64,000 nucleotides of DNA from Candidatus Kuenenia stuttgartensis. GTDB lineage: Bacteria; Planctomycetota; UBA11346. Below are positions 611 to 63,090 of this stretch, one piece after another. The stretch spans positions 66,310 to 130,309 of the forward strand of contig CAMCMZ010000001.1 in the NCBI GenBank assembly GCA_945876185.1, given 5' to 3'. Numbering within the stretch: the stretch's first letter is position 1; the number at the start of each line of letters is the position of its first letter. Made by a program: the position numbers and the translations under genes. The notes under the pieces were generated by a model. That model saw only the letters and a program-made list of their open reading frames with translations, was not told the DNA's origin and ran no database searches.

Positions 611-925
611 CCTGGGACCGCCGGTTTCCAACCGGCAGGGAAGCAAGACCAGTCTGGTTTCCTGGGATGCGTCTTGGAAATCTGCCGGTTACAAACCGGC
701 GGTCCCAGGGGCTTGCCTTGGCCTGGGACCGCCGGTTTCCAACCGGCAGGGTAGCAAAAGCAGTCTGGTTGACCGGGATGCGTCGTGGAAATCTGCCGGT
801 TACAAACCGGCGGTACCAGGGGGCTTGCCTTGGCCTGGGACCGCCGGTTTCCAACCGGCAGGTCAGCAAAAGCAGTCTGCTTGACCGGGATGCGTCGAAT
901 ATTTCTGCCGGTTGGATACCGGGTC
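611..925. repeat. tandem array of three 111-112 bp units, each an inverted doublet of the CCTGGGACCGCC-hairpin element
   Basis: Units start at 611, 722 and 834 (CCTGGGACCGCCGGTTTCCAACCGGCAGG). Each carries the inverted copy CTGCCGGTTACAAACCGGCGGT(C/A)CCAGG (682-709, 793-820). The third unit degenerates after ~905. Located between the chrA stop and the SGNH hydrolase start. Confidence 0.9.
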
Positions 926-986
926 TTTTCGTGAGCCCTTCCCCAGATATGTCCACCATCCGCCACCACCCGCAAGGATTTCCACT

Positions 987-1652
987 ATGCCCCTGCTCTT
1001 CCAGCCCAAGGAAAAAATCGTCTGCATCGGTGATTCGGTCACCGACGCCGAACGCGCCAAGCCTATCGGTGAGGGTTTGTTCGGGGCGCTCGGCAAGGGC
1101 TGGGTGACCCAGGTCGATGCGCTGCTGTCGGTGACGTATCCCGCGCATCAGGTGCGGCTGGTCAACATGGGCACGAGCGGCAATCAGGTCACTCACCTCG
1201 CCCAGCGCTGGCAGACCGATGTCCTCGACCTCAAGCCCGACCACGTCGTTGTGATGATCGGCATCAACGATGTCTGGCGCCAGTTCGACCTGCCGCGTCA
1301 GCCGGAACAGCACGTTCTGCCGAAAGCCTACGAGGCCACCCTCGACAAGCTCGTCGCCAAGACCCTGCCCACGGTGAAGAGCCTGATCCTGATGACCCCG
1401 TTCATCATCGAATCCAGCCCGGCCGACGCGATGCGCGCGCGCATGGATGAATACGGTACCATCGTGCAGAAGATCGCGACCAAACGGAAGACCCGGTTCA
1501 TCGACACCCAGGCCGCCTTCAACCGTGTATTGGAGCACCAGCATTCGTCGTCGATCGCCTGGGACCGCATCCACCCGAACCAGGTCGGGCACATGGTGAT
1601 CGCGCGGGCGTTTTTGCAGGCGGTGGGGTTCGAGTGGAGCGGCGGTGAGTGA
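987..1652 (+). CDS. SGNH/GDSL-family hydrolase (lipase/esterase fold)
   Basis: ORF 912..1652. Start moved to ATG 987 (MPLLFQPKEKIVCIGDSVTD) because codons 912-986 lie in the repeat array. SGNH blocks are visible: GDS (CIGDSVTD), GTSGN, GINDV, DRIHPN..GH. Confidence 0.8.
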   Translation: MPLLFQPKEKIVCIGDSVTDAERAKPIGEGLFGALGKGWVTQVDALLSVTYPAHQVRLVNMGTSGNQVTHLAQRWQTDVLDLKPDHVVVMIGINDVWRQFDLPRQPEQHVLPKAYEATLDKLVAKTLPTVKSLILMTPFIIESSPADAMRARMDEYGTIVQKIATKRKTRFIDTQAAFNRVLEHQHSSSIAWDRIHPNQVGHMVIARAFLQAVGFEWSGGE

Positions 1653-1715
1653 TCGCCTGCAACCACGTCACTTAGGCCTGCGAACCGGGCACCGCTCGCC
1701 AGTGTGCTTGTCCAA

Positions 1716-2723
1716 CTAACGCCGCTTACGCTTCCACCCGCCCCCGCCCGGCCCGAAGCGCGAGAGCAGCCACCAGCTGAACCAGGCGATCAGCAGCATC
1801 GCGATGGTGAACAGGGTGTAGGCCAGCCACCAGGGGCAGTTGTACTTCTCAATGGTGAAGCGTGAGAATTCCGACATGCCGCCGATGCCGGCGAGGATGT
1901 TGAGCGGCGCGACCGCGACGGTGATCAACGAGAAGAACTTGAAGATGCGGTTCTGCTCGAAGTTGATGAAGCCGATCGAGGCATCGAGCAGGAACTGCAT
2001 CTTGTTGGCGGTGAATGACGCGTGGTCGGTGAGCTGCTGGATGTCGCGCTGGATCGCGGCGAGGCGGGCTTTCGACTCGGGGCCCATCCAGTCCTCGGTC
2101 GCCTGGCGCGCGAAAGTCACCATGCGGCCCTTGTCGACCAGCGACTCGCGCACCTTGCTGAGGATGTGGCCGGCGCGGCCGATGTTGATGAGGGCGCGCT
2201 GCAAGTCAGGTTCGACCTCTTCGCGTGGGCCATGATGGCGGAAGACTTTGCTCGACAGGTTCTCCAGCTCGACCGAGACGATCTCCAGCATGTCGGCCAG
2301 GCGTTCGACCGTGGTCTCGAGGATGCAGACGAAGGCGAGTTCGGCGCTGGTCGCGCCCGACTTCGGCGCGCGCTGGGGAAAGACCCGGAAGGTCCACGGT
2401 TCGTCGTAGCGCAGGGTGATCAGACGTTCGCGGCTGAAGATGAAGGTCACGGCGGTAGTGAGTGGTGACGGCGTTTCCGTCTTGGTGAGCATCGTCGCGG
2501 TCATGTAGACCACGTGCCCGTCGCGGTAGAGCCGGCTCGACGCTTCGATCTCCTGCATCTCGGCCTTGGTCGGCATGTCGAGATGGAAGGTCGATTCGAG
2601 GAGTTTCGATTCCTCCGGCGTGATCTCGACCACGTCGATCCAGGCCGCCGCCGGATGCAGCGCCTGGCCTTCCGCCTGACTTTTGCAGAGGCCCTTGTCC
2701 GTGGTAGTCCAGGAGGTGATCAC
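1716..2723 (-). CDS. CorA-like divalent cation channel with GMS instead of the canonical GMN motif
   Basis: 335 aa with a long soluble N-terminal domain and two C-terminal TM helices. The CorA signature position reads LAGIGGMSEF (GMS codons at 1872-1880). Basic tail WKRKRR. Confidence 0.65.
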   Translation of the reverse strand: MITSWTTTDKGLCKSQAEGQALHPAAAWIDVVEITPEESKLLESTFHLDMPTKAEMQEIEASSRLYRDGHVVYMTATMLTKTETPSPLTTAVTFIFSRERLITLRYDEPWTFRVFPQRAPKSGATSAELAFVCILETTVERLADMLEIVSVELENLSSKVFRHHGPREEVEPDLQRALINIGRAGHILSKVRESLVDKGRMVTFARQATEDWMGPESKARLAAIQRDIQQLTDHASFTANKMQFLLDASIGFINFEQNRIFKFFSLITVAVAPLNILAGIGGMSEFSRFTIEKYNCPWWLAYTLFTIAMLLIAWFSWWLLSRFGPGGGGWKRKRR

Positions 2724-2782
2724 GCGGGCGGTGGATTACTTGCGCGGAGCAACCGGCGCAAGCGCGGGAGTCGCCGTTGCCC

Positions 2783-2875
2783 CAGGGTGCCTCAAAAGTC
2801 GGCCTTCCTGGGAGCGCCGGCGTCTCGCCGGCCGGGAAAGCAGCATCCGCAGGATGCCGCCTGGCCAGTGCCCGC
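2783..2875. repeat. truncated copy of the ~94 bp hairpin element also seen at 48984-49077
   Basis: GGTGCCTCAAAAGTCGGCCTTCCTGGGAGCGCCGGCGTCTCGCCGGCCGGGAAAGCAGCATCCGCAGGATGCC is near-identical to 48983-49055. It lacks the right terminal inverted repeat. Located in the divergent spacer between the corA-like and radical SAM genes. Confidence 0.85.
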
Positions 2876-2959
2876 CGTCGCCGCCGTTGCGACCCGCTCA
2901 GAGCAGGCTGGGGCGGTTCGTGACTGGCCCGCCGGCGTTGACCCGCTCTGATCCCACCC

Positions 2960-3814
2960 GTGACCGCACTCTTCGCCAGCCATCCCCGCCTGTGGGCGGG
3001 CAACGCGTACGTCTACCCCGTGGTCAGCCGGCGTTCGCGCGGGTTGTCGCTCGGGGTGAACTTGAACCCCGACAAGGTCTGCAACTTCGACTGCGTGTAC
3101 TGCTCGGTCGACCGGAACGTCGAGCCCACCGTGCGCCACGTCGATCTTGCCGTGGTCGCGCGAGAACTGGAAGCGATCCTCGATCCTGCGGCCTCGGGCA
3201 CGCTGTTTGCCGCGCCGCCTTTCGACCAGACGCCAGCGGCGCTGCGGCGCCTGAACGACGTGGCCTTCAGCGGCGACGGCGAGCCGACCGCCTATCCGCA
3301 GTTCGCCGCCGCGCTGGATCTCGCGGTGCGGGCGCTCGATGCGCGCGGTCTTTCCCAGGTGAAGGTGGTGGTGATCACCAACGCGACCCTGTTCGACCGC
3401 CCCGCCGTCGCCGACGCGCTGGTCGCGCTCGACCGCCGCGCGAGCGAGGTCTGGGCCAAGCTCGACGCCGGCACGGACGAGCACTTCGCCCGCGTCGACC
3501 GCAGCCGGTTTCCGCTCGACCGGATCTGCGCCAACCTGCTGGCGCTCGGTCGCCGCCGGCCGCTGGTGATCCAATCGCTGTTCCTGCGCGTCGCGGGTGT
3601 GCCGCCGTCGTCGGTCGAGATCGTGGCGTACCTCGACCGCTTGCGCGATTTGCGCTCCGGTGGCTGCCGCATCAGCCGGGTCCAGGTCTACACCACCGCG
3701 CGGCCGACCGCCGAAAATACCTGCGCCCCGCTGACCCGGACCGAGGTCGATGCGATCGCCGCTGGCGTGCGTGCGCTCGGCATTGAGGCCGAGGCGTTCT
3801 ACGCGCCGGAGTGA
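2960..3814 (+). CDS. radical SAM domain protein (function unknown)
   Basis: 284 aa with a GTG start. CxxxCxxC cluster CNFDCVYC near the N-terminus, and SGDGEPT (SAM-binding GGE-like motif) downstream. Confidence 0.75.
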   Translation: MTALFASHPRLWAGNAYVYPVVSRRSRGLSLGVNLNPDKVCNFDCVYCSVDRNVEPTVRHVDLAVVARELEAILDPAASGTLFAAPPFDQTPAALRRLNDVAFSGDGEPTAYPQFAAALDLAVRALDARGLSQVKVVVITNATLFDRPAVADALVALDRRASEVWAKLDAGTDEHFARVDRSRFPLDRICANLLALGRRRPLVIQSLFLRVAGVPPSSVEIVAYLDRLRDLRSGGCRISRVQVYTTARPTAENTCAPLTRTEVDAIAAGVRALGIEAEAFYAPE

Positions 3815-3949
3815 ACTGGGGGCATCTTGTCTGCCAGTCCATCCACCCGGTCTATTCCAATCCATTGGATAACCCCAGAAAGCCCAGCGGTTCCTGAGCG
3901 ACGGACTATCGCGCCCTTGAGTTCTGGCTATTCTGGCTAGATTCCTTTC

Positions 3950-4219
3950 ATGACCCACTCATCCACCTGGCAACTGCACGAGGCGAAGAATCGCCTCAGC
4001 GAGATGATTCACGCGGTCAAAGAGCACGGACCCCAGACGATCACCCGGCATGGGGTACCGGTGGTGGTGCTGGTGCCCGTCGGCCCGGCGACCGCGTTGG
4101 ACGGATCGCCCTCAGCCTGGGAACTGCTGCGGGATGATGTGGTGGCAGAATTGGGCGGGCCGCCGCCCGTGCCGGAGCGGGTGGTGGAGGCGTCGCCCGT
4201 GGCCACGTTGCCATGGTAG
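3950..4219 (+). CDS. type II antitoxin, Phd/YefM family
   Basis: 89 aa. N-terminus TWQLHEAKNRLSEMIHAVKEHGPQTITRHGVPVVVLVP is the Phd/YefM pattern. It overlaps the downstream PIN toxin gene by 7 nt. Confidence 0.8.
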   Translation: MTHSSTWQLHEAKNRLSEMIHAVKEHGPQTITRHGVPVVVLVPVGPATALDGSPSAWELLRDDVVAELGGPPPVPERVVEASPVATLPW

Positions 4220-4674
4220 GAGGCTACCTGCTGGATACCTGTGTGGTGTCCGAGACCGGGAAGCCGCGTCCTGACGCGAACGTCGAGCACTGGTTGCGTC
4301 ATCTGCCAGCCCATCGGATCTGGACCAGCGTGCTGGTGCTGGGCGAACTCCAGCACGGAATAGCGCTGCTGGAAGAAAGCCCCCGCCGTCGCGCTTTGGT
4401 GGCATGGTTGGGCCGTCAGCGCGCCTGTTTCGGAGAGCGCTGCCTGGGTATCGATGAGGCCGGCGCCCGAGCCTGGGGCGATCTGTACGCAGCCAGGCAA
4501 CGCCAGGGCCGACCTCTGCCGGTGATTGATGGCCTGCTGGCCGCGACTGCCATCGTGCGCGGACTCGCGTTGGTCACCCGCAATGTGACCGACTTTGCCG
4601 ACTGCGGCTTAAACCTGGTGAATCCCTGGGCGGGGACAGAGCAAACGCCAGCGGATTTGCTCAACCCACCTTGA
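4213..4674 (+). CDS. vapC: type II toxin, PIN-domain ribonuclease VapC/FitB-like
   Basis: 153 aa. [10 protein letters not shown] (N-terminal acidic residue), LGELQHG, and C-terminal LVTRNVTDF are typical of VapC. Translationally coupled to the upstream antitoxin. Confidence 0.8.
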
Positions 4675-7567: not shown

Positions 7568-7713
7568 AGGGTTTGAGGCGCGATGCAGCGCCTCAATGAT
7601 TACCCTACGAACGGGTTAGGCGAAAGCGGGATTTGCCCAGTTTTCAGGGCGAAGGGGAATCCATCTGGGCGGGTTACCGATCGCAGCCGTTCCCAGAGTC
7701 GAGCGGGGGACGC

Positions 7714-23954: not shown

Positions 23955-24028
23955 GCCAGGCTGGAGCCTGGCGGTCCCAGGGTCGATGCCGGGAACCTGC
24001 CCTGGGACCGCCACGCTCCAGCGTGGCA
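23955..24028. repeat. inverted doublet of the CCTGGGACCGCC-hairpin element inside the feoA-feoB spacer
   Basis: GCCAGGCTGGAGCCTGGCGGTCCCAGG (23955-23981) and CCTGGGACCGCCACGCTCCAGCGTGGCA (24001-24028) are reverse complements. They differ only by a paired stem change (CCAGGCT/AGCCTGG versus CCACGCT/AGCGTGG). Confidence 0.9.
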
Positions 24029-24418: not shown

Positions 24419-25249
24419 CTACGACAGGGTTGCGCCATCAAGGCGGGCCCCGCTGCGCGCCGCCAGGTGCTCGAACCAGGACGAGCCGAAATGCACGCGA
24501 CCCCAGGCCAAAAGCTGGATGCGCGCGACCGGCGTCGGCTGCGGATCGTCCTGGATCGCGGCCGCGAGCGCCACCGCCTCGGCGGCGACCACCCAGGGCC
24601 GGTCGTGTTCTTCCGGATCCAGGCGATCTTCGATCGCCCTGCGATCGAGCGCGACGTGGGCGGCGAACAGCAGTTCAGGCTGGACCAGCTGGTCGTCCTC
24701 GACCAGGCCGAGGCAGTCGAGATGCAGCAGGTCATCGTCCTCGAGTCCGGCCTCTTCGGCCAATTCGCGCCGGATCTCGCCAGCCACATCGTTCGCCCGT
24801 GCTGGTTCGACGCAGCCGCCGAAAGGATGCACCCGGCCTGCATACAGCGCCACCCGCTGGCTGCGCCGACCCAGGATCAGCCAGTTGTCGGCGGTGACGA
24901 CGACGGCGCTGACCCCGAGCGGATTCGCCCGGCGCTCACGCGGCAAGGTGCGATCGCGGCAGTTCGTGCCCCAGAACCAGCGATAACTCGTCGGACTGAG
25001 CGCGAGGTCGAGCCGGCCGGCGCTGGCGCGGTGGCCTTCCAGCCGGGCGAGCGGCCCGTCGAAAAGGTGCTTGCCGGTCTTCGCCGCCTCGGCCAGGGCG
25101 GCGGCCCAGGAATTTTCCACGCGGGTGGTGTCGGCCGCCGTGGGCCGGAAACCGCTCGGCACGGACAGCGAGCAGACCTGCTCCGGCGTCCAGCGGCCGA
25201 GGGCTTGCACGGTGATGGCGGGATCCGGTTGTCCTGGGGCCGGTGTCAT
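24419..25249 (-). CDS. NUDIX-family hydrolase
   Basis: ORF 24419..25279. Start set at ATG 25249, which forms an ATGA overlap with the mutL stop. Nudix-box-like FGGCVEP...GEIRRELAEEAGL. Confidence 0.7.
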   Translation of the reverse strand: MTPAPGQPDPAITVQALGRWTPEQVCSLSVPSGFRPTAADTTRVENSWAAALAEAAKTGKHLFDGPLARLEGHRASAGRLDLALSPTSYRWFWGTNCRDRTLPRERRANPLGVSAVVVTADNWLILGRRSQRVALYAGRVHPFGGCVEPARANDVAGEIRRELAEEAGLEDDDLLHLDCLGLVEDDQLVQPELLFAAHVALDRRAIEDRLDPEEHDRPWVVAAEAVALAAAIQDDPQPTPVARIQLLAWGRVHFGSSWFEHLAARSGARLDGATLS

Positions 25250-27204
25250 CGCTGAAACCGCTTGGCCAATTCTTCCCAACTCAAATCGAGCGTGGTCGGC
25301 CGGCCGTGCGGGCAGTGCTCCATGTGCTCCATCTCGAACAGCATCCGCACGAGTTCGAGCTGTTCATCGGCGTTCAGAATCTGCCCAGCCTTGACCGCCG
25401 CATGGCAGGCGGCGCGATGCGCGAGGCGGGTGCGCAGCAGGTCGATCCCGCCGCCCGTGGCGACCTCTCCCAGGAAGGCAGCCCAGTTCAGCCGCCGCAG
25501 CGCCTGCGGATGGGCGTGGACGTGGACCTCGGTCGCGCCGGCGACTTCCAGGTCGATGCCCAGGTTGGCGAGTTCGTTGACCAGCGGCCGCAGGCCCGCG
25601 ACCTCGGCCGCGTCCAGGCGGACGACCAGCGGCACCAGCAGTTCCTGGCGTCCGCCCGCGAACGGATCCGCGTCGCCAGCCAGGGAATTGAACAGGGCTT
25701 TTTCATGCAGCGCGTGTTGATCGACGAGACGGATGCCGTGCTCGGTTTCGATCAGCAGAAACATCCGGTTGAGCTGCACGACGCGCCGGACTGAAGGCAG
25801 ATGCTGCGTCGCCGCGACGCGGGCGGCGTCGGGCGCAGGTGCCGCTGGTCCCGTTGGCACCGGCGTGGCCGCGGCATCGGTGGCTGGCGGAGCAGAAGGG
25901 AGTGGCGCGGAGGAGAGCAGCGCGGAGGGGGTCGGAAATGGTCCCGCCTGATACGCGATCGCAGGTTCCTGCGTTTTCAGCGGCCGATCCGGCACATCAA
26001 AGCCGGCGATGTGGTCGGCGGCGGGAACCGGCCGCGTGACCTCGGGCGTCACCACCGGCGTCGCTGGCAGGAAGCGCTCCTGATACACTGGCGCCGCTGC
26101 CTTCACCACCGTGCGCGACAGGATCGGAGAGTCGGCGGTTGGCGCTGGCGCGGCCGGGGCCGCCGGCTGCGGCCGGTCGGCGGGCGTGAGCAACGTGAAG
26201 CCGCCCGCGTGCTTGGCCACCGCCGCGTTGATCGCTTTGGAAACCAAGGAAAACACATCACCTTCGCGGCGGAAGCGCACCTCGGACTTGGTCGGGTGCA
26301 CGTTGACGTCGACCTGCGACGGATCGAGGTCGAGGTGGAGAAACACCGTGCCGTGCAGGCGCGGTTCAAGGAATCCCTTGTAGCCCTCGCGCACCGCCAC
26401 GATCAGGATGCGGTCCTTGACGAAGCGGCCGTTGAGAAAGAGGTACTGCCGCTTCGCGGTCGGCCGCGCCTCGCGCGGGTGCGCGACGAAACCGCTGACC
26501 TGCATCGCGTTCGCCTGCTCTGCCACCGCGATCAGGCTGCCGGCGACCTCGGGGCCGAACAGCGCGGCGATGCGTGCCTCCAGCGTCGATGCCGGTGGCA
26601 GGTCGATATCGGTGCGGCCGCCGACTTTTAGCCGGAAGCCGACCTTGGGATGCGACAGCGCCAGGCGCACCACCTGGTCGTGGACGTGGCCAGTTTCCGA
26701 CGCCTCGCTTTTGAGGAATTTCAGCCGCGCCGGCACGTTCCAGAACAGGTTGCGCACGCTGATCCGCGTGCCCGGCGACATGGCGCACGGCTGGTAGGTG
26801 GTCTCATTGCCGCCGGTCAGGCGGACCAGCTGCCCCGCGATGGCGTCGTGCGGGCGCGAGGCCAGTTCCATCTCGCTCACCGCCGCGATCGACGGCAGGG
26901 CCTCACCGCGGAAACCCAAGGTCGCGATGCGGAACAGGTCGTCGGAACTTGACAGCTTGGACGTCGCATGGCGGCTGATCGCGCGGCGTAAATCAGCCGG
27001 ACGCATGCCGTGGCCGTCGTCGCTGACCTCGATCAGGCGGCGACCGCCGTCCTCGATCTCGATCTGGATCCGCGTCGCGCCGGCATCCAGGCTGTTTTCG
27101 CCGAGTTCCTTCACCACCGCCGCCGGGCGTTCGACCACCTCGCCAGCGGCGATCTGGTTCGCGACCTGCTCGCTCAGTTGGATGATTTCGGGCGGGGCGC
27201 GCAT
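25246..27204 (-). CDS. mutL: DNA mismatch repair protein MutL
   Basis: ORF 25246..27366. Start moved to ATG 27204 (MRAPPEIIQLSEQVANQIAAGEVVERPAAVVKELGENSLDAGA, GHKL ATPase N-terminus). The upstream 54 codons run through a repeat element. Confidence 0.9.
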   Translation of the reverse strand: MRAPPEIIQLSEQVANQIAAGEVVERPAAVVKELGENSLDAGATRIQIEIEDGGRRLIEVSDDGHGMRPADLRRAISRHATSKLSSSDDLFRIATLGFRGEALPSIAAVSEMELASRPHDAIAGQLVRLTGGNETTYQPCAMSPGTRISVRNLFWNVPARLKFLKSEASETGHVHDQVVRLALSHPKVGFRLKVGGRTDIDLPPASTLEARIAALFGPEVAGSLIAVAEQANAMQVSGFVAHPREARPTAKRQYLFLNGRFVKDRILIVAVREGYKGFLEPRLHGTVFLHLDLDPSQVDVNVHPTKSEVRFRREGDVFSLVSKAINAAVAKHAGGFTLLTPADRPQPAAPAAPAPTADSPILSRTVVKAAAPVYQERFLPATPVVTPEVTRPVPAADHIAGFDVPDRPLKTQEPAIAYQAGPFPTPSALLSSAPLPSAPPATDAAATPVPTGPAAPAPDAARVAATQHLPSVRRVVQLNRMFLLIETEHGIRLVDQHALHEKALFNSLAGDADPFAGGRQELLVPLVVRLDAAEVAGLRPLVNELANLGIDLEVAGATEVHVHAHPQALRRLNWAAFLGEVATGGGIDLLRTRLAHRAACHAAVKAGQILNADEQLELVRMLFEMEHMEHCPHGRPTTLDLSWEELAKRFQR

Positions 27205-27305: not shown

Positions 27306-27342
27306 ACGCTTGCGCCTGGGACCGCCAGGCTCCAGCCTGGCC
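27306..27342. repeat. CCTGGGACCGCC-hairpin element (single copy)
   Basis: CGCTTGCGCCTGGGACCGCCAGGCTCCAGCCTGGCC, near-identical to 28561-28596. Located in the divergent mutL/trxB spacer. Confidence 0.85.
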
Positions 27343-28489: not shown

Positions 28490-28743
28490 GTAGCGCCGGC
28501 TTCAGCCGGCACGAAGGGGCTTGGCCATTCGGCCCCAATGTCACGGAAACGATGGTAAAACGCTTGCGCCTGGGAGCGCCAGGCACCAGCCTGGCCCTCG
28601 CCACTGTGAGGAGCGAAATCCGGTAATTCACTGCAAATGACCACTCATGCCCGAGTTGGGCCGCCCGGCGACCACGCACCAATGGCCAATCCCCAGGCGG
28701 CGGGTTGAAACCCGCCGTCCGTGCCGGCTGAAGCCGGCGCTAC
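28490..28743. repeat. mosaic repeat cluster bounded by inverted GTAG-headed REP-like hairpins
   Basis: GTAGCGCCGGCTTCAGCCGGCAC at 28490-28512. Its inverted copy GTGCCGGCTGAAGCCGGCGCTAC is at 28721-28743. Inside are CGCTTGCGCCTGGGAGCGCCAGGCACCAGCCTGGCC (28561-28596) and the hairpin GGCGGGTTGAAACCCGCC (28699-28716). It fills the whole trxB/miaA convergent spacer. Confidence 0.9.
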
Positions 28744-42971: not shown

Positions 42972-42995
42972 ACCAGCCCATCGTCCGGTCGACCT

Positions 42996-43022
42996 TCTGG
43001 GAACGCCGGCGTCCCGCCGGCC
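42996..43022. repeat. degenerate copy of the CCTGGGAGCGCC-GCCGGCG hairpin element
   Basis: TCTGGGAACGCCGGCGTCCCGCCGGCC, compared with CCTGGGAGCGCCGGCGTCTCGCCGGCC at 2807 and 49004. Located between murQ and the efflux adaptor gene. Confidence 0.75.
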
Positions 43023-43131
43023 AGGAAAACAGCGGTATCGGAATATCACGCAACGTTGGCAGGTTTGCAGCGTAGCGCGCGGTCGGCCGCTTGTGCTTGT
43101 GGCCACCGAGGCCGGGCCAGACTCGCGCAGC

Positions 43132-47420: not shown

Positions 47421-47421
47421 G

Positions 47422-48921
47422 CTATTTGACCAGCACGCCCAGGCGCTGGGCAGCGGCCGCAAGGCGTTCAATCACCCGCACCTGGCCGATCGCGGCCAGG
47501 GTCTCGAACAGCGGGGGCGATTCCTTGCGGCCGCTGGCGGCGACGCGCAGGAGCATGAACACCGTCTTGCGGTTCCAAAGCCTGGCCTCGGCGAGTTGCG
47601 CCGGCGTCGCCTCCGGTTTTTCCACTGCGCGTTCGTCGATCGCCCCGCCGATCAAGGTTTCCAGGGCTTTCGCATCCCAGGTGCCGTTCGCGCCGGCGTG
47701 GTCTTTCAGCACGCGGACGAGCTTTTCCAGGATCAGCTTCGCCTGCGGCCGATCGAGGCCCTTGGGCACCAGGTCGTCCAGGTGCGGCTCGACCGTTTCG
47801 GCATAGAACGGCGCTGATTGCAGTAGGTAGTCGCCGCCGAAGACCATGCGTTCGCGTAAGAGCGGCAGAAGCTCATCAACCCGCGCGTCGACAGCGCGGT
47901 GGATCTCGGCCTTGAGTTGGTCCGGCCCGAGTTCGCGAAACCACAGGCCTTGCAGGTGTTTCAGCTTCGCGAGGTCGAACACCGGTCCGGCGACGTTGAT
48001 GCGGTCGAGGTCGAACACTGGGGCGAGTTCGGCGGCGGTGAACTTTTCCCGGCCATCGGGATGGCTGTGGCCGAGCAGGGCGAGGAAGTTGAGCAGCGCG
48101 TCGGGCAGGTAGCCCTGGCGGCGGTACCAGAGCAGGCTGGTGGGATTCTTGCGCTTGCTGATCTTCGACTTGTCGGCGTTGCGCAGCAGGCCGACGTGGA
48201 CGTATTCCGGCGCGGTGAAACCCAGGTGCTGGTTAAGCCACAAATGCTTGGGCAGCGAATTCAGCCATTCCTCGGCGCGAATGACGTGGGTGATGCCCAT
48301 CAGGTGGTCGTCGACCACCGCCGCGAGGTGGTAGGTCGGCCAGCCGTCGGATTTGAGCAGCACCTGATCGTCGATCTCGGCCCATTGCTTCACCACCGGC
48401 TGGCGGCGCAGGCGATCATTGTAGGTGGAAGCGCCCTCGGTCGGGGCCTTCATGCGCACGACGTGGGTCTCTCCAGCCTCGGCGCGCTTGGCGGATTCGG
48501 TGGCAGATAAGGCGCGGCAGCGGCGGTCGTACATCACCGGCTGCTTGGCCGCGAGCTGGCGCTCGCGCATGCCGCTCAGGTCGTCTGCCGTGCAGAAGCA
48601 GCGGTAGGCGTCATTCTGGGCGAGCAACTGATCTGCGTATTTCCGGTAGATCCCGAGCGCGACGCGCTCGCTTTGCACGTACGGGCCGTGATCGCCGCCG
48701 ACGTCGGGACCTTCGTCATAGCTCAGGCCGAGCCACTTGAGCGAGGCGTAGATCGCCTGCGCGCTGGCGTCGCTGCATCGGCCGCGATCGGTGTCTTCGA
48801 TGCGCAGGATGAACTTCCCGCCATGGCGGCGGGCGAAGCACCAGTTGATCAGGCCGATGTAGGCGGTGCCGACATGGGGATCACCGGTGGGGGACGGGGC
48901 GATGCGGACGCGGACGGTCAT
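47422..48921 (-). CDS. gltX: glutamate--tRNA ligase
   Basis: ORF 47422..49032. Start moved to ATG 48921 (MTVRVRIAPSPTGDPHVGTAYIGL, HIGH-type motif). KISKRK (KMSKS-type) is present. The 37 upstream codons (MAGETPALPG...) are repeat-element read-through. Confidence 0.9.
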   Translation of the reverse strand: MTVRVRIAPSPTGDPHVGTAYIGLINWCFARRHGGKFILRIEDTDRGRCSDASAQAIYASLKWLGLSYDEGPDVGGDHGPYVQSERVALGIYRKYADQLLAQNDAYRCFCTADDLSGMRERQLAAKQPVMYDRRCRALSATESAKRAEAGETHVVRMKAPTEGASTYNDRLRRQPVVKQWAEIDDQVLLKSDGWPTYHLAAVVDDHLMGITHVIRAEEWLNSLPKHLWLNQHLGFTAPEYVHVGLLRNADKSKISKRKNPTSLLWYRRQGYLPDALLNFLALLGHSHPDGREKFTAAELAPVFDLDRINVAGPVFDLAKLKHLQGLWFRELGPDQLKAEIHRAVDARVDELLPLLRERMVFGGDYLLQSAPFYAETVEPHLDDLVPKGLDRPQAKLILEKLVRVLKDHAGANGTWDAKALETLIGGAIDERAVEKPEATPAQLAEARLWNRKTVFMLLRVAASGRKESPPLFETLAAIGQVRVIERLAAAAQRLGVLVK

Positions 48922-48983: not shown

Positions 48984-49077
48984 GTGCCTCAAAAGTCGGC
49001 CCTCCTGGGAGCGCCGGCGTCTCGCCGGCCAAAAAAGCAGCATCCGCACGATGCCACCAACCGACTTTTGAGGCGAC
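48984..49077. repeat. ~94 bp MITE-like element with 14 bp terminal inverted repeats and a central GCCGGCG hairpin
   Basis: GCCTCAAAAGTCGG (48986-48999) and CCGACTTTTGAGGC (49061-49074) are perfect inverted repeats. The core is CCTGGGAGCGCCGGCGTCTCGCCGGCC (49004-49030). A left-half copy lies at 2783-2875. Confidence 0.85.
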
Positions 49078-56344: not shown

Positions 56345-56394
56345 CCGCAAGAAGGACAGTCACCGTCGCGATTATTTTTTTGCGGGAATAGTTG

Positions 56395-56597: not shown

Positions 56598-56599
56598 AG

Positions 56600-58231
56600 T
56601 CAGCCCAGATCGCGCGTCGCCTTGCGGATGATCGTCGTCGCGCGCACGTCGCCTTGTTTTTCGCAGAGCGCCGCCGCCTGGTCGAAGAACTGCTTGGCGG
56701 AGTCGCGCCGGCCGAGCAGACCGTGCGCGTTGCCGATGCCGACCAGGACCTTGGCGTGGATTTTTTCTTCCGGTTCCAGGTCGAGATCCTTGAGCGCGGT
56801 TTCGAACTGGGTCAGGGCGGCCTCGCCTTCGCGCAGCGCGAGATGGCACGAACCGATCTGGTAGCGCAGTTTCGCCCGGTCGTCGGGCTGGCGGTCACCG
56901 AGTCCCGTCAGGGCGCTGCCCAGGAACTCAATCGCCTCGTGGAACTGCCCACGCTTGGCCAGCAGCACGCCCAATGAATGCTGGGCGCGGATGCGTTCGC
57001 TGCGGTCTTCAGGTCGGGTGCAGACGCTGATCAGCCGGCGTAGGTGCGCCTCGGCCTCGCCCAGGGCGCCGCGCTCCTGCTGGATCTCGGCCATGGTGCC
57101 CAGCACCTTGAGCTGATCGCTGCGGTCGCCGAGCACTTTCAAAATCTCGACCCAGCGCTGCATGATCGCGAGCGCCTGTTCCGGTTCGCCGAGCGAGCGA
57201 TGCAGGTTGGCGAGCGCCGACAATGCCTGCTCCATGTGGGCGGGGTTGTTGTGCGCCTCGGCGGCGGCGAGCGACTGTTCGAAGGCGGCGCGCGCGGGTC
57301 CGGCGCGGCCGGCGCGGGCATTGGCGGCGCCGATCAGGTAGAGCGTGCGCGAGACGCCGTCGTGGTCGTCGACCGAGCGGCAGAGGTCAAGCGCGCGCTG
57401 GTAGCGTTCGATCGCCTGGTCGAGCTGGCCGCGCTTGACCTCGACCATGCCGACCCGGCGCAGGGTCTGGGCTTCCAGCATCGCGTTGCCGGCCTGGTGA
57501 TGCAGGGTCAGACAGCGTTCGTGCAAGGCGATGGCGGCGACATGGTCGCCACGATCGCGCTGCATGTCGGCGTAGCGCGCCAAGGTCTCGCCGGCTTCGA
57601 AGCCACGGCCGAGTTCCTGCGAAATCGCGGCCGAGGTCTCATAGTTTTCGCCCGCCTGCTGCGGTCGATCGGCGATCGCATGCGCCGCGCCCATCAGTTC
57701 GTGCACCAGGGCGCGTTGGATGCCCTTCTTGAAGGCGGTGAAGATCGCGAGCGCGCGGGTGAGCGCCGCCAGCGCCGGTTCGGCCTCGCGTCGGGCGATC
57801 AGGCAGCGAGCGAGGTCGACAAGGCACAGCGCGATCTGGACGTGGTCGTTGCGCTCCTCGGCCAGTTCGACCGCGCGCTTCAGCAGGCGCAGGGCCTGGT
57901 CGAAATCGCTCTGTTCGACCCAGGCGGCGCCGGCCAGGCCGGCGGCCTCGCCCGCATTCTTGGCGTCGCGGGCGGCTTCGAAGACGCGCAGGGCGTCGCC
58001 GAAGACCTGGCCCGCATCGGCGTGGTTGCCCGCCTTGGCGTGCAGCCGGCCGAGATCCATCAGGCATTCAGCGCGCCGGGTCGGCCAGCCGGCCTTTTCA
58101 AAGCCTTCGGCGGCGGCGCGGAAATGCGGCACGCCGGCGGCAAGCGCGGCGCCGGTCTTCTGCTCCAGGATGAGCAGACCCAAGCGGCGTTCGGACTGGG
58201 CGAGTTCTTCATGGTGCTGCTGGTCGGTCAT
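56600..58231 (-). CDS. cytoplasmic tetratricopeptide-repeat protein (543 aa)
   Basis: No signal peptide. About 12 regular ~40-residue repeats of the form A...L..A..I......D....A..L..LG.....G....A. Confidence 0.8.
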   Translation of the reverse strand: MTDQQHHEELAQSERRLGLLILEQKTGAALAAGVPHFRAAAEGFEKAGWPTRRAECLMDLGRLHAKAGNHADAGQVFGDALRVFEAARDAKNAGEAAGLAGAAWVEQSDFDQALRLLKRAVELAEERNDHVQIALCLVDLARCLIARREAEPALAALTRALAIFTAFKKGIQRALVHELMGAAHAIADRPQQAGENYETSAAISQELGRGFEAGETLARYADMQRDRGDHVAAIALHERCLTLHHQAGNAMLEAQTLRRVGMVEVKRGQLDQAIERYQRALDLCRSVDDHDGVSRTLYLIGAANARAGRAGPARAAFEQSLAAAEAHNNPAHMEQALSALANLHRSLGEPEQALAIMQRWVEILKVLGDRSDQLKVLGTMAEIQQERGALGEAEAHLRRLISVCTRPEDRSERIRAQHSLGVLLAKRGQFHEAIEFLGSALTGLGDRQPDDRAKLRYQIGSCHLALREGEAALTQFETALKDLDLEPEEKIHAKVLVGIGNAHGLLGRRDSAKQFFDQAAALCEKQGDVRATTIIRKATRDLG

Positions 58232-58498
58232 GACGGCTCCTCTCCCAAGAGATCGCGATGCCGGAGCATGGCCGATCCTGCCCGCAAGTCATCCGGCAAG
58301 CGATCCCCGCACCGGGTGGTGTCGGGAGCACGGTGGTCGGGACGTTCAGGAGGCGTCGCGGGTGCGCCCCTGTCGGGTTTCTGGACTGATGCGAGGGGGG
58401 CACGCAGCTCCCATTTGTGCGAACCTGCGCATTCTGGACATGGAAATCCGGGCGTACCGCCTAGGGTGCTGCGCGCATCTTCAGACCGGGGACCCGTC

Positions 58499-59542
58499 AT
58501 GACCGCCGCTATGTCCGCGCCTGCTTCCGCGCCAACCGCCATCCGCTGGTACCACAGCCCGGTATCGCGCGAGGACCTGCGCGACCTCCTGCGCCGCGAC
58601 AATCGCCTGGCCTGGGCCCAGACCCTGGGCTTTCTGCTGCTCATGGTCTTCACCGGTGGGGCGGTTCTGGCGGCGGGATTCACAGGGGTGTGGTGGGCGG
58701 TGCCGTTGCTGTTGCTGGTGCATGGCACCTGCACGCATTTCCTCATCAACGCCGTGCACGAACTCGGCCATGAGACCGTGTTCTCGAGCCGGTGGCTCAA
58801 CCGCTTCTTCGCTGCGCTCTTCGCCTTCCCGGGCTGGATCAACCATCTTCACTTCGACGCCAGCCATTCCCGGCACCACCGCTACACGCTGCACCAACCC
58901 GATGATCTTGAGGTGGTCGTGCCCATCCGTCTGACCCTGGCTGATTTCCTGCGCATCGCCGTGTTTGATGCCAAGCACCCGTGGGAGGAGTTCAGCAAGG
59001 CGCTGCGTTACGCGCGCGGCGGCTTCATCGGGCCGTGGAACGCGACGATCTTCCCTTCCGACAAGCCCGACGATCGCGTTCCGGTGGTGCGCTGGGCGCG
59101 GTGCCTGATCGCCGGCCACCTGCTGATCCTTGCCGCCGCCGTCGCGCTGGCCTGGTTCCACCACCTGGCCTGGCTGCTGCTGCCGCTGGTCGTGAGCTTC
59201 CCGAACATGTGGGGCGGTTGGCTGCAATGGCTCTGCAACAATCCCCAGCATGCCGGCATGGAGGATCGCGTCCCCGACGCTCGCCGCTGCTGCCGCACCA
59301 TCCTCCTCAATCCGGCGCTGCAATTCCTTTACTGGCACATGAACTACCACATCGAGCACCACATGTTCGCCGCCGTGCCCTGCTACCACCTCGGCCGGCT
59401 CCACCGCCTGATCCGTTCAGATCTGCCCGCCTGCCCGGTTGGTCTGGTCGCCACCTGGCGTGAGATCCTCGCCATCCAGCTCCGCCAGCAGGCGGATCCG
59501 CTCTGGCGGCCGCAGGTCATTCTGCCTGCCGCTACGGTCTGA
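58499..59542 (+). CDS. membrane fatty acid desaturase family protein
   Basis: ORF 57044..59542. Start at ATG 58499, because the upstream part is antisense to the TPR gene. Three His boxes: HELGH, HSRHH, HIEHH. Confidence 0.85.
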   Translation: MTAAMSAPASAPTAIRWYHSPVSREDLRDLLRRDNRLAWAQTLGFLLLMVFTGGAVLAAGFTGVWWAVPLLLLVHGTCTHFLINAVHELGHETVFSSRWLNRFFAALFAFPGWINHLHFDASHSRHHRYTLHQPDDLEVVVPIRLTLADFLRIAVFDAKHPWEEFSKALRYARGGFIGPWNATIFPSDKPDDRVPVVRWARCLIAGHLLILAAAVALAWFHHLAWLLLPLVVSFPNMWGGWLQWLCNNPQHAGMEDRVPDARRCCRTILLNPALQFLYWHMNYHIEHHMFAAVPCYHLGRLHRLIRSDLPACPVGLVATWREILAIQLRQQADPLWRPQVILPAATV

Positions 59543-59614
59543 TCCGCAATGGCAGAGTCGAACCGCTGTGCTTCGCAGCATTGCCGTGCCGGGGCCGCAG
59601 CTAGCCTGCCGGCC

Positions 59615-60208
59615 ATGAACAAAATCCTCGCCCCCGTCGCCGTCCTGCTCGCCACCACGCCCGTGCTTCTCGGTCATCCTGGCCATGGCGAGAGCGGCGT
59701 CGCCGCCGGCGCGATGCATCCGCTCCACGGTCTCGACCACATCCTGGCGATGATCGCGGTCGGCCTGATGGGCGTGCGCTGCGCCACCGGGCCGATGGGA
59801 AACCGGCATGCGCTCTGGCTGGTACCGGCCACATTCATGGCCGCAATGGCGGCCGGATCGGGTCTCGCGCTCGCCGGTGTGCCGATGCCGGGCGTCGAAT
59901 GGGGCATCGCGCTGTCGGTGCTGGTGTTCGGCGTGATTGTCGCGCTCGGCACCGCACCGCGCACCTGGGTCGCCTGCCTGGTCGCGGGGGCGTTCGCCCT
60001 CCTGCATGGCCACGCCCACATCGCCGAGATGGGCGACACCAGTGTCCTGGCCTACATGGGCGGCTTCCTGGCCACCACAGGCCTGCTCCACGCCGGTGGC
60101 GTCCTTGCCGGCTGGTGCATCGCCCGCGCTTGGAGCACCAGCATCGTCCGCCTCGCCGGGGCCGGCGTCGCCCTGGCCAGCTTTTGTCTGTTCGCCGCCC
60201 TCGTCTGA
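59615..60208 (+). CDS. HupE/UreJ family metal (Ni/Co) transporter accessory protein
   Basis: Start at ATG 59615 (MNKILAPVAVLLATTPVLLGHPGHGE). HPLHGLDHILAMIAVGL followed by six hydrophobic helices. Confidence 0.8.
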   Translation: MNKILAPVAVLLATTPVLLGHPGHGESGVAAGAMHPLHGLDHILAMIAVGLMGVRCATGPMGNRHALWLVPATFMAAMAAGSGLALAGVPMPGVEWGIALSVLVFGVIVALGTAPRTWVACLVAGAFALLHGHAHIAEMGDTSVLAYMGGFLATTGLLHAGGVLAGWCIARAWSTSIVRLAGAGVALASFCLFAALV

Positions 60209-60258
60209 CGTTCGGGCCGTGGGCGTGCCAGCCCACCCGACCCTTGGAGATCAAAGCC

Positions 60259-60299
60259 AAACGACAAAACGCACGGCATTACCGTGCGTTTTGTCGTTT
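60259..60299. terminator. bidirectional terminator-like hairpin between hupE and tRNA-Leu
   Basis: Perfect 18 bp stem AAACGACAAAACGCACGG / CCGTGCGTTTTGTCGTTT with a 5 nt loop. It lies 6 nt from the tRNA-Leu 3' end. A T-run follows on the minus strand (TTTGGCTTTG). Confidence 0.6.
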
Positions 60300-60305
60300 G
60301 CGTCG

Positions 60306-60389
60306 TGCCCGGGACAGGACTCGAACCTGCACGCTTTTGAGGGCGCTAGGACCTGAACCTAGTGCGTCTGCCAATTCCGCCACCCGGGC
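60306..60389 (-). tRNA. tRNA-Leu (anticodon CAG), class II with long variable arm
   Basis: Reverse complement reads GCCCGGGTGGCGGAATTGGCAGACGCACTAGGTTCAGGTCCTAGCGCCCTCAAAAGCGTGCAGGTTCGAGTCCTGTCCCGGGCA. Acceptor stem GCCCGGG/CCCGGGC. Anticodon stem CTAGG/CCTAG with loop TTCAGGT. T arm CAGGTTCGAGTCCTG. Confidence 0.9.
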
Positions 60390-60509
60390 TGGACGGCGAG
60401 GCGCGGAAGCTAGGGTCACTTCCATGCTGATCAAGCGGATGTCTTTCGCGACGGGGCGGCGGAGGTCATCCGACCCGAGGCGACAGCGGTCATCCGACCC
60501 GGGGCGACC

Positions 60510-61292
60510 ATGCGCCTGAAACCGCCCGGCGGCCTGGTGCATGCGATCGCCTGGGGTCTGACCCGCTCGCTCACCTTCCATACCTACGGCGTCGCCAACC
60601 TGCGCCGCGCGGCGGCGATGTCGCCCACGGGTTCGATCGTGGCGTGCCTGTGGCATCAGAGCCTCTTCGCCGCGATCGGCGGCAACGACGCCATGAACCG
60701 GCGCGGCATCCGCGTCGCTGCGCTCGCCAGCCTGTCCGGCGACGGCGCGATCATCGCGGACTACCTCAAACGCATCGGCATCCGCCCGATCCGGGGTTCA
60801 TCGGCGCGTGGCGGCGCGCGCGCGGCCAAGGAACTCATGCAGGCGATCGACGAGGGCTGGCTGCTCGCGATCGCCCTCGACGGCCCGCGTGGCCCGTGGA
60901 AGGAAGCCAAGACCGGTCCGCTCGAACTCGCCCGCCGCCACCGCCTGCCGATCCTGCCGGTCGCCGCCCGCGCCACGCGCGAACTCTGCTTCAAGCGTTC
61001 GTGGGATCGCTTCCGCCTGCCCCTGCCGCGCGCCCACGTCGCGCTGTGCTACGGCGAACCGTACCTGCTGCCCGAGGCCGAACCCGACGCCGCTGAACTT
61101 GAGCGCCGCCGCCGCACCCTGGCCACCCAGATCAATGGCCTGGAGGCCTTCGCCTCGCGCCTGGCCCATCGGCGCGACCTCGGCCCGCCGGCGCACGCGC
61201 TGGCGTGGATGCACGCCGCAGAACGGTCGGAACCGGAACCCAGGCCTGGGGTGGAGTCGTCTCCGGCAGGGGCAGGATCCGCTCATGGCTGA
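60510..61292 (+). CDS. DUF374 / lysophospholipid acyltransferase-superfamily protein
   Basis: 260 aa. ACLWHQSLFAA....ALASLSGDGAIIADYLKRIGIRPIRGSSARGG..A..E....I..G....IALDGPRGP is the DUF374 pattern usually found in LPS/Kdo contexts. Confidence 0.7.
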   Translation: MRLKPPGGLVHAIAWGLTRSLTFHTYGVANLRRAAAMSPTGSIVACLWHQSLFAAIGGNDAMNRRGIRVAALASLSGDGAIIADYLKRIGIRPIRGSSARGGARAAKELMQAIDEGWLLAIALDGPRGPWKEAKTGPLELARRHRLPILPVAARATRELCFKRSWDRFRLPLPRAHVALCYGEPYLLPEAEPDAAELERRRRTLATQINGLEAFASRLAHRRDLGPPAHALAWMHAAERSEPEPRPGVESSPAGAGSAHG

Positions 61293-62814
61293 CCGCGCTC
61301 CGATCGATCACGATCAACCCCGAGCCCGCTTCCGCTGGAGCGTGGTCAGCATCGCGTGGACCATCTTCGTCATTCTGCTCGTCACGGTGATCGCCGCCGT
61401 CATCACCCGCTCGATCCTGATGGACCGCTATCAAGCCGAACTCGCCCAGGTCCGCGCCGAGATCAAGGCCGCCGGGCTTCCGACCACGATTGAAGAAATC
61501 ATCCCCAAGCCCGTGCCCGAGGCCGAGGACGCGGCGCCGCTTTGGTACCAGGTGTTTGGGATCATGACGGCGGGGACGTTTTCGACCGCGAAACGGGCCC
61601 GGATCACCACCGCCAAATCAATCGAGGCGATGCTGGAGGATTCTAACGAACCCGCTGAAAAAGCTAACAAGCGGACGAGAAAGGACCTGCCGTCACCTGA
61701 AGATGCCGCACTTTTCCTGGCACGTCAGGATGCGGTCCCGGAACTGTGGAGCCTGGCCGCAGAGGCCTCGCGCCGGCCGTATTGCCGGTTTCACAGGGAT
61801 TGGACCACCGGAGCCTATGTCCACATGCCGGAAACATCTCAGGTGACGATGCTCGGCAAACTTCTGATCTGGCGCGCGCGTTGCCAGTTTGCGCTGAACC
61901 AGGATGAATCAGCAATGCAGACTTTGGTCATTTTGCCAGGCGCAGCGCGGCATTTCCGAAATGAACCGCAACTGATCTCCAGCTTGATCGGAAGGGCGCT
62001 GGATGGACGAGTACGTGGTGAACTCCAGCGAATCCTGGAGATTCGTCTAGTGCGTATTCCCAACGACATACACGAGTCGGTCCTGTCTCTAGCCGATGAT
62101 CGTGGGAGTCGCCTTTTGGCGTGCGACGGAGAACGCATTATCTTGGGAGATTGGGCCTTCGAGCAAATTGAGAGCGACAAGGTGAAGCTATCGGGGATCG
62201 TCAAGATGTCGGATTTTTTGGGCGGAGGATCTGTTGAACATTGGTGGAACGAGGCGGTCTGGTGGGTCCGTGATTCCTGGTTCGGAAAGCCGTTGATCTA
62301 CCACGATCACGCGGCTTTTTTGAGATTGATGATGCAATACCGGAAGACGATCCAAGAGTCGGGGTCCAGGTCCGGCGAGAATCCCGGTCTTCAGAGTGGA
62401 TCCACGGTCTCCACGTCCGGTCCTCACCTGTGCTGTGGCAATGCAGTATCCCCTATGTGCATCACCCCGGTCACCAGCACGCTTTCCTCAGGTTGGATCT
62501 CTGTGATGCGCCTAGATCAGAAAGAAACGCTTCTGAACACCCAATGCCGTTTTTCCCTGGCTCTCGCAGCGGTGGCTCATCGCGAGGGACAATTCCCAAC
62601 CGACCCCCAGGCAATCGGTATCCTCATTCCACCCGGTCTGACCTACATCCGCGACGGCGACCGCGCGATCATCGGTTTCGATGCCGACATGGCCAAGCAA
62701 TGCAACATCCCGCCGATGAGCCTGATTCCGGAAACCGACAAGAGCAAGGAATCCACGCGCAAACGCTTCCTCTGGTACCTCGCCGCCCCGAACCAGGGGA
62801 AGTCTTCCCCGTAG
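61285..62814 (+). CDS. hypothetical N-terminally anchored protein
   Basis: ORF 60808..62814. Start at ATG 61285, with an 8 nt overlap onto the DUF374 stop. TM segment WSVVSIAWTIFVILLVTVIAAVI followed by a helical region. No recognisable domain. Lower GC in the second half. The TAG stop lies in the GTAG of a REP-like element. Confidence 0.55.
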   Translation: MADRAPIDHDQPRARFRWSVVSIAWTIFVILLVTVIAAVITRSILMDRYQAELAQVRAEIKAAGLPTTIEEIIPKPVPEAEDAAPLWYQVFGIMTAGTFSTAKRARITTAKSIEAMLEDSNEPAEKANKRTRKDLPSPEDAALFLARQDAVPELWSLAAEASRRPYCRFHRDWTTGAYVHMPETSQVTMLGKLLIWRARCQFALNQDESAMQTLVILPGAARHFRNEPQLISSLIGRALDGRVRGELQRILEIRLVRIPNDIHESVLSLADDRGSRLLACDGERIILGDWAFEQIESDKVKLSGIVKMSDFLGGGSVEHWWNEAVWWVRDSWFGKPLIYHDHAAFLRLMMQYRKTIQESGSRSGENPGLQSGSTVSTSGPHLCCGNAVSPMCITPVTSTLSSGWISVMRLDQKETLLNTQCRFSLALAAVAHREGQFPTDPQAIGILIPPGLTYIRDGDRAIIGFDADMAKQCNIPPMSLIPETDKSKESTRKRFLWYLAAPNQGKSSP

Positions 62815-63090
62815 CGCCGGCTTCAGCCGGCACAGCGTTTCGCTGCGTCTTGTCCATGCCGACTGAAGCCGGCGTTGGGGATTGGTCATCTGTACGAAGT
62901 GGTCAGGCAATCCGGCCATGGCCGCTCACGATCACTCCGCAATAGTTCGATTTTCGGGCCATGGCCGGATCGCCTCGGGACGAGCGGCCGGTTGGAAACC
63001 GGCGGTCCCAGACGCAAGCGTTCTCGTTGGCTTTTGTCGCTTATCGACGCGAAGGGCCGATTCCTCGAGCCGGCTCAAGCCGGCGCTACG
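62811..63090. repeat. second mosaic repeat cluster bounded by inverted GTAG-headed REP-like hairpins
   Basis: GTAGCGCCGGCTTCAGCCGGCAC (62811-62833). Inverted partner ATGCCGACTGAAGCCGGCGTTGG (62856-62878). GCCGGTTGGAAACCGGCGGTCCCAG (62987-63011). GCCGGCTCAAGCCGGCGCTAC (63069-63089). It fills the whole convergent spacer. Confidence 0.9.

Follow-up and report, generated by a model that had tools for sequence, protein, structure and literature searches.

The 64,000-nt stretch of planctomycete DNA analysed here (contig C1, positions 66310-130309, of assembly GCA_945876185.1; hereafter the window) contains short hairpins that are dispersed between its genes and preceded by a common sequence tag, and the question is what kind of element they are and what recognises them. 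An earlier note on this DNA had listed 13 copies and proposed either a repetitive extragenic palindromic (REP) sequence, possibly arranged as REP doublets forming hairpins (REPINs), with a dedicated protein, or a structured RNA motif. From the window and the rest of the assembly (3.80 Mb, 66% G+C, 123 contigs, 82% complete) we conclude that the hairpins are very probably the REP sequences of a REP-associated tyrosine transposase (RAYT, or TnpA-REP, an HUH/Y1 transposase) system in an uncultured planctomycete.

Structure, number and placement of the repeated unit

All 13 copies were recovered in the window with the positions and orientations first reported, each of them between gene calls; genes were called with a codon-usage caller of this study, which trims non-coding N-terminal extensions and by which 84.7% of the genome is coding. 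The 12-mer CCTGGGASCGCC, allowing at most one mismatch, is found 13 times in the window, against 2.6 +/- 1.9 times in shuffled sequence (0 of 100 shuffles reached 13); one of these matches (1558) is due to chance, being inside a gene and lacking a hairpin. Genome-wide the exact 12-mer occurs 179 times and its reversed control once. When copies are required to have a perfect stem of 6 bp or more after a tag with no more than one mismatch, the genome holds 305 copies versus 3 for a reversed-tag control, 290 of the 305 share a single fixed register, and a relaxed definition (GGA-N-C) gives 296. The family is thus a short palindromic repeat with more than 100 copies per genome, as REPs are.

The unit measures 26-27 nt and consists of the tag CCTGGGA-S-C (S being C or G), a 7-bp stem and a loop of 3-4 nt. 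CCTGGGA is the commonest form of the tag (226 copies), followed by TCTGGGA (29) and CCCGGGA (27), and GGAS occupies the position that GTAG has in classical REPs, one nucleotide off the stem foot. The flank CCTGGGA(C/G)CGCC described in the earlier note is conserved, but its terminal GCC is the foot of the stem and not part of the flank. Similarly, the stems do differ between copies while remaining self-complementary, but instead of four types of 6-8 bp we found uniform stems of 7 bp, with an invariant start (G-C, C-G), in at least 12 families, mainly GCCGGTT, GCCAGGC, GCCACGC, GCCGGCG, GCGCCGC, GCCGAGC, GCCGGGC, GCGCGCC and GCGGGCC. Folded as single-stranded DNA, all copies in the window adopt the form with an unpaired tag and a 7-bp stem. 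A 'double foot', in which the 5' CCT would pair with a 3' AGG, was considered and dropped, only ~17-20 of 96 GCCGGTT copies being compatible with it.

The covariation test suggested at the outset was carried out on a set of copies chosen by the exact 11-mer tag alone, which avoids a bias towards pairing. All seven Watson-Crick pairs are present in the fixed register in 112 of 143 unique 30-mers, versus 3 of 5000 random genomic 30-mers. In an alignment of 42 rows, 80.3% of the cells are paired versus 56% after shuffling (0 of 500 shuffles), and the covariation score is 0.551 versus 0.183 (0 of 500), with slid registers reaching at most 0.19. The first two pairs are invariant (G-C and C-G), the third is C-G or G-C, three pair types occur at each of positions 3-7, which covary strongly, and G-U pairs are nearly absent from the stem. 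It should be noted that sub-families with complementary stem changes have already been described for REPs (Di Nocera 2013, PMC3733652), and therefore stem covariation itself is a known REP property. These data also bear on the idea that the palindrome is a duplex-DNA operator of a dimeric regulator or of a nucleoid protein, as might be imagined for sites that are palindromic, dispersed and intergenic. We regard this as extremely improbable: the stem sequence is free while complementarity is kept, which argues for a reading of shape and not of duplex sequence, and the conserved part is an asymmetric, one-sided tag.

Concerning placement, 262 of the 305 copies (86%) are fully intergenic, whereas random 29-mers, used as the null, are so in 13.5% of placements; copies are therefore not as frequent inside genes as between them, in agreement with what the window had suggested. 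Forty copies are called inside genes, many of these being repeat clusters miscalled as genes. Neighbouring copies at most 300 nt apart are mostly arranged as a forward and a reverse copy with the tags outward (59 pairs, compared with 14 reverse-forward, 18 forward-forward and 5 reverse-reverse), and the favoured spacings are ~47, 79-81 and 113 nt. Pairs often mix two arm types, GCCACGC with GCCAGGC, just as the Y and Z REPs pair in the bacterial interspersed mosaic elements (BIMEs) of E. coli. Both inverted dimers (REPINs) and mosaic clusters (BIMEs) are thus present, and the window offers an example of each: copies 611-639 and 682-709 form a REPIN of 99 nt, which folds into a single long hairpin (-37.9 kcal/mol, z = -8.4), and this belongs to a cluster of alternating forward and reverse copies with a period of 111 nt (611-925).

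Hairpins that are stable, GC-rich and intergenic could also function within transcripts, terminating them, stabilising their 3' ends or binding a protein, and classical REPs do affect mRNA stability (Di Nocera 2013, PMC3733652), so that a secondary effect at the RNA level is possible. As the primary explanation, however, a structured RNA motif seems to us highly improbable. Plain copies, that is those outside the longer elements described below, lie in divergent (27%), convergent (15%) and otherwise tandem spacers about as often as the lengths of the spacers would predict, have either orientation and show no terminator-like placement; no T-run follows the stem, the stem pairs are almost all Watson-Crick and a DNA transposase gene is associated with the elements. 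At gathering thresholds Rfam gave no family match to the elements and matched only two tRNAs. Thus, between the two suggestions of the earlier note, the RNA motif was not supported, by placement, G-U content and Rfam, while the REP-type element with a dedicated protein was, by the genes considered next.

RAYT genes bracketed by tagged hairpins

A search for the partner gene found four RAYT paralogs, on contigs C4, C12, C31 and C11, encoding proteins of ~185-190 aa with 42-54% mutual identity and weaker matches to Y1_Tnp (Pfam). The NHVH motif and a Y-I-x-x-N-P-V-type motif (HUH and Tyr) are invariant among them, the latter in the forms YIHANP, YIENNP, YIHRNP and YVVNNP; WQ is present in C4 and C31, replaced by WL in C12 and WG in C11. 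The C4 protein matches NCBIfam NF047646, 'REP-associated tyrosine transposase', with 100.4 bits (cut-off 80), and in the PDB the family profile matches E. coli TnpA-REP best (4ER8, E = 5e-12).

CCTGGGASC-tagged inverted pairs, with stems GCGCCGC and GCGCGCC, stand on either side of the C4 and C12 genes, and the C31 gene likewise has inverted pairs on both sides, with the tag CCGGGA. C11, the most divergent paralog, is bracketed by cGTAGC-GCCGGC-TTY-GCCGGC, a classical GTAG REP, whose family counts 40 copies in the genome and four in the window. Since C4, C12 and C31 carry the GGGA-type tag and C11 carries GTAG, the type of tag goes with the paralog within a single genome. The residues contacting GTAG in 4ER8 were compared over the four paralogs, and no simple swap separates C11 from the GGGA paralogs: W-D-R-F-I-R-D-E is common to them (Y-D-R-F in C11). 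The stems flanking the C4, C12 and C31 genes belong to minor families, with ~5-30 tagged copies each.

The association extends to relatives. Many genera of the same family have the 12-mer in abundance (258, 186, 81 and 49 copies in different genomes), and outside this family it is absent. Of the 12 genomes in which the 12-mer occurs 20 times or more, 10 have a close RAYT, versus 4 of the 13 others (Fisher p = 0.015). Considering the own genome and same-family relatives together, there are 20 close RAYT loci, of which 17 have tagged hairpins on both sides, the tags pointing outward. Some of these flanks in relatives carry stems that are abundant in our genome without a cognate RAYT in this assembly, namely GCCGGTT (loci L093 and L100) and GCCGAGC (L094, L099 and L112).

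By analogy with E. coli TnpA-REP (4ER8) and with the TnpA of IS608, the RAYT would recognise the hairpin by its shape on transiently single-stranded DNA; if so, any self-complementary stem would be tolerated and sub-families could therefore differ. The tag would be read base-specifically, with GGAS in the place of GTAG, and the enzyme would cleave and rejoin near the repeat, spreading REPs and REPINs.

An IS200-type gene (C8:10866-11195; NF033573, 68 bits), the only strong Pfam Y1_Tnp match, was also tried as a partner and rejected. No CCTGGGA tag lies within 2.5 kb of it and its flanks are GCGTCCC-GTAG-GGACGC and CCCGGGGTT-GAA-ACCCCGGG; the tagged hairpins are thus not sub-terminal to a classical IS200-type tnpA, as the ends of an IS200/IS605 insertion sequence would be. 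This locus has its own repeats, an array of ~six units after the gene and one unit upstream (C8:10690-11780), in which CCCGGGGTT-GAA-ACCCCGGG hairpins alternate with GCGTCCC-TAC-GGGACGC palindromes, a third hairpin system in the genome. At C31:5000-6300, the RAYT cassette with four hairpins directly follows a gene ending in ...KLEAAIRANLSGLGYAL and precedes a small open reading frame (ORF) ending in ...KLEQAIAANLKGLGYGG. The mechanical ORF here, of 318 aa, runs through the RAYT and the hairpins; the cassette may have inserted at, or into, the duplicated 3' end of a gene.

Longer elements that carry the unit

Part of the copies lie inside two longer repeats. Family A (47 copies) is 94 nt long, with 14-nt terminal inverted repeats, one core unit and a second hairpin, while family B (51 copies plus variants) is ~194 nt long, its termini are inverted and its single core lies ~55 nt away from one of them; B-type variants have different core stems at the same internal position. 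In the window, 6 of the 13 copies are in longer repeats (2807, 28569, 42996, 49004, 62987 and, arguably, 27315, for its CGCTTGCG prefix). The features of the window are listed in Table 1.

Table 1. Tagged hairpins and carrier elements of the window (F, forward and R, reverse orientation of the copy; G001, same-genus genome used for synteny)
Feature	Position	Strand	Description
REP copy F	611-639	+	tag CCTGGGACC, stem GCCGGTT, loop TCC; first unit of BIME-like cluster
REP copy R	682-709	-	loop TGT
REP copy F	722-750	+	second 111-nt unit of cluster
REP copy R	793-820	-	one tag mismatch (CCTGGTACC)
REP copy F	834-862	+	followed by decayed tag-less partner CTGCCGGTTGGATACCGGG at ~905-925
One-armed family A copy	2789-2858	+	left inverted terminus GCCTCAAAAGTCGG; core 2807-2833, stem GCCGGCG, loop TCT
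REP copy R	23955-23981	-	stem GCCAGGC, loop TCCA; decayed orthologue in G001
REP copy F	24001-24028	+	stem GCCACGC, loop TCCA; second arm type; absent at orthologous G001 site
REP copy, CGCTTGCG-prefixed subfamily	27315-27342	+	stem GCCAGGC, loop TCCA; divergent mutL-trxB spacer
B-type element, 181 nt	28516-28696	+	inverted termini GGGGCTTGGCCATT...AATGGCCAATCCCCAG; core 28569-28596, stem GCCAGGC, loop ACCA
Degenerate family-A-like copy	42996-43022	+	tag TCTGGGAAC with 2 mismatches; perfect stem GCCGGCG, loop TCC
Complete family A element	48986-49074	+	14-nt terminal inverted repeats; core 49004-49030
B-type element, ~192 nt	62877-63068	-	core 62987-63012, tag TCTGGGACC, stem GCCGGTT, loop TCC

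The one-armed family A copy at 2789-2858 retains the second hairpin (GCATCC-GCA-GGATGC) and lies 61 nt upstream of the start of a corA-like gene; the complete one at 48986-49074 lies 60 nt upstream of the start of gltX. The elements also explain the extended ORFs of mutL and gltX, which the earlier note had correctly taken as artificial: the trimmed genes are 25246-27204 and 47422-48921, the mechanical ORFs extend through the elements to 27366 and 49032, and the protein profiles start at residue 7 (MutL) and 2 (GltX) of the trimmed products.

Comparison with G001 shows that this genome lacks both B-type copies of the window and the A copy found upstream of gltX, and its mutL-trxB spacer has a degenerate tagged hairpin with a stem other than that of the window. 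Presence/absence and decay of copies between the two genomes therefore indicate that the repeat family is dynamic. At the empty site in G001 the junction DNA has diverged too far to show a target-site duplication of family A. Both B-type elements of the window are in the spacers of GTAG-type inverted pairs (28490-28743, with arms 28490-28510 F and 28723-28743 R, and 62811-63089), which have the form GTAGC-GCCGGC-TTCA-GCCGGC ... GCCGGC-TSAA-GCCGGC-GCTAC. At 62.9 kb the element stands between two GTAG-type hairpin copies whereas G001 has only one, an arrangement that would fit a hairpin-targeted insertion with duplication. Separately, G001 holds ~3.9 kb of extra DNA (C1 ~210960-214880) exactly at the spacer corresponding to window positions 42995-43071, where the window has its degenerate family-A-like copy.

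These longer elements suggest another explanation, in which the tag and hairpin are a cis-module of DDE-type miniature elements (A, B and their relatives), plain copies are remnants and the link with RAYTs is secondary. It could account for the canonical copies that lie at one constant place inside the 94-nt and 194-nt inverted-terminus elements, for the variants with other core stems at the same position and for the presence/absence polymorphism of A and B in comparison with G001. On the other hand, the 187 other copies are alike only within the 26-27-nt unit (no flanking position exceeds 0.45 bit) and make inverted pairs and clusters of their own, and the bare unit, without A or B sequences, brackets RAYT genes in many phyla, as shown in the next section. 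We therefore consider this explanation very unlikely, and retain the RAYT system, to which a second route of spread is to be added: about one third of the copies have travelled as passengers in the 94-nt and ~194-nt non-coding mobile elements.

The position of family A relative to genes was also recorded and is strongly specific. A gene start faces the tag-side end of the element in 39 of 44 copies (p = 1.4e-7), and in 17 of these 39 the distance to the start codon is 55-61 nt, with all three frames represented and non-conserved intervening DNA; the element lies ~58 nt upstream of start codons. TTG occurs at -38..-32 from the start codon in 11 of 20 genes adjacent to family A versus ~17% expected, which suggests that the element may dock ~20 nt ahead of the -35 box in the promoters of leaderless genes. 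Upstream of 1240 genes of this genome TTG peaks at -34 (4.3% versus a background of ~1.5%), and Shine-Dalgarno-like motifs at -12..-10 reach only 3-4%; for these two reasons, many genes of the organism may be leaderless.

The tag in other phyla and among known systems

The bracketing of RAYT genes was evaluated also at larger distance, on 80 RAYT homologues (~40-55% identity, many phyla) taken from a scan of named genomes. Forty-two of these loci, from many phyla, are bracketed in the same way. Perfect hairpins beginning 0-3 nt after CTGGGA were counted 68 times in 25 loci and those after CCGGGA 36 times in 17 loci, while most control hexamers were counted 0-6 times and CGTC, a described REP tag, 23 times; also in an unbiased tally of the 80 loci, CTGGGA is the commonest hexamer preceding hairpins. 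Many of the remaining loci have n-GGA-N-C and others cGTAG-C, in the same register, and GGAS is therefore the positional counterpart of GTAG. On the RAYT tree the CYGGGA tag (Y being C or T) clusters, with 21 changes versus 32.7 after shuffling (0 of 500), and a split with an SH-aLRT (approximate likelihood-ratio test) value of 98 puts 22 rows without CYGGGA, including 11 with GTAG, on one side and 77 rows, among which are all 44 with CYGGGA, on the other. The phyla with the tag beside homologous RAYTs are Acidobacteriota, Planctomycetota, Lentisphaerota, Verrucomicrobiota, Chloroflexota, Proteobacteria, Cyanobacteria, Thermotogota and Bdellovibrionota.

The system resembles the REP/BIME/REPIN and RAYT systems of E. 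coli (YafM, 4ER8) and P. fluorescens SBW25 in its high-copy extragenic hairpins with a conserved 5' tag, in the sub-families with alternative complementary stems, in the inverted dimers forming long hairpins and the tandem mosaic clusters, and in an HUH/Y1 gene that is bracketed by its own repeats and present as paralogs of low identity, not as identical insertion sequence copies. It differs from them because the tag is CCTGGGA-S-C, with seven conserved bases and GGAS replacing GTAG, the perfect stems are of only 7 bp and have no bulge, the protein (~190 aa) has the N-terminal extension G-W-x-S-R-G-Y-L-P-H-F-D, and several stem families share one tag in a genome with three tag-matched paralogs.

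TnpA-Y1 subclass 2.4 (Quentin 2018, PMC6006769) is equivalent to RAYT group 4 (Bertels 2017, PMC5581495). By the motif table of the former study, the RAYTs described here fit subclass 2.4, which has NH[IFV]H, WQ and YIxNNP, a median length of ~194 aa, a patchy but wide distribution across phyla and a stem foot of three consecutive G-C pairs, found also in our repeats. However, the 5' tag described for that subclass is GT[AG]G, sometimes with a 'double foot', and its REPs are long, whereas in our genome GT[AG]G is found for C11 only. The REP detector of Quentin 2018 (PMC6006769) demanded GTAG or GTGG, and repeats with a CYGGGA tag would therefore go unscored; the abundance of the 16-mers flanking group 4 was modest, with 14 occurrences (Bertels 2017, PMC5581495). 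With the super-families GTAG and CGTC defined by Di Nocera 2013 (PMC3733652), and especially with GTAG-1 and GTAG-2, our family shares a layout in which a tag precedes a short unpaired spacer, a stem of 6-9 bp and a very short loop, sub-families with covarying stem residues, a preference for head-to-head dimers and the presence in bacteria of the Planctomycetes-Verrucomicrobia-Chlamydiae group. Their two tags both differ from ours: the reported degeneracies of GTAG (GYAG, GTRG, GTMG, GTGG) include neither a G at position 2 nor a CCTG extension, and G-T pairs are common there but nearly absent here.

Several observations weigh against assigning the hairpins to a RAYT system. The tag CCTGGGA-S-C departs from the GT[AG]G or CGTC foot tetranucleotide of REPs. 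The commonest stems (GCCGGTT, GCCAGGC/GCCACGC, GCCGGCG) flank no RAYT in an assembly that is 82% complete, and in G001, with 45 copies of the 12-mer, no close RAYT was found. As many as 98 of 290 canonical copies are inside A and B, and their number therefore reflects the spread of those elements and not RAYT activity. The mapping of tags to clades is noisy, with several switches on the RAYT tree. No strand bias was detectable relative to local GC skew or gene strand, with small numbers and fragmented contigs. Finally, binding and cleavage by the RAYT are proposed here by analogy.

Searching the literature for the tag string yielded nothing but irrelevant primer and guide sequences, and a search for broad-phylum surveys of REPs and RAYTs nothing beyond Di Nocera 2013 and Quentin 2018. 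The CYGGGA class of tags thus appears to be undescribed in the literature searched, the system itself being a variant of the known REP/REPIN-RAYT kind. A wider reading is conceivable, although we hold it only tentatively and think it rather doubtful as a whole: C(T/C)GGGA-N-C would be a third, phylum-spanning REP super-family, served by a large subclass-2.4-like RAYT clade that reads a 6-7-nt tag and was missed by GTAG/GTGG detectors, and in this planctomycete its 26-nt module would also be portable, unrelated miniature elements having acquired it, among them one that docks at a constant distance upstream of leaderless-gene promoters.

The finding is ordinary in kind, but useful for annotation and for the study of tag recognition. 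The presence of this tag beside RAYTs in many phyla provides a natural experiment on the reading of hairpin-foot nucleotides by HUH enzymes, and, as paralogs with 42-54% identity carry GGGA or GTAG in one genome, swapping experiments are straightforward. Searches that do not presuppose a tag would probably enlarge the known range of REP/RAYT systems. On the practical side, the ~300 hairpins and their carrier elements inflate ORFs in this genome and its family, with recurrent fake N-termini such as those of mutL and gltX, and they break assemblies. Among 25 close RAYT matches in relatives, 7 are at most ~300 nt from a contig end (e.g. 93-644, 92-640, 102-647 and 48-566), which is consistent with flanking repeats that break short-read assemblies.

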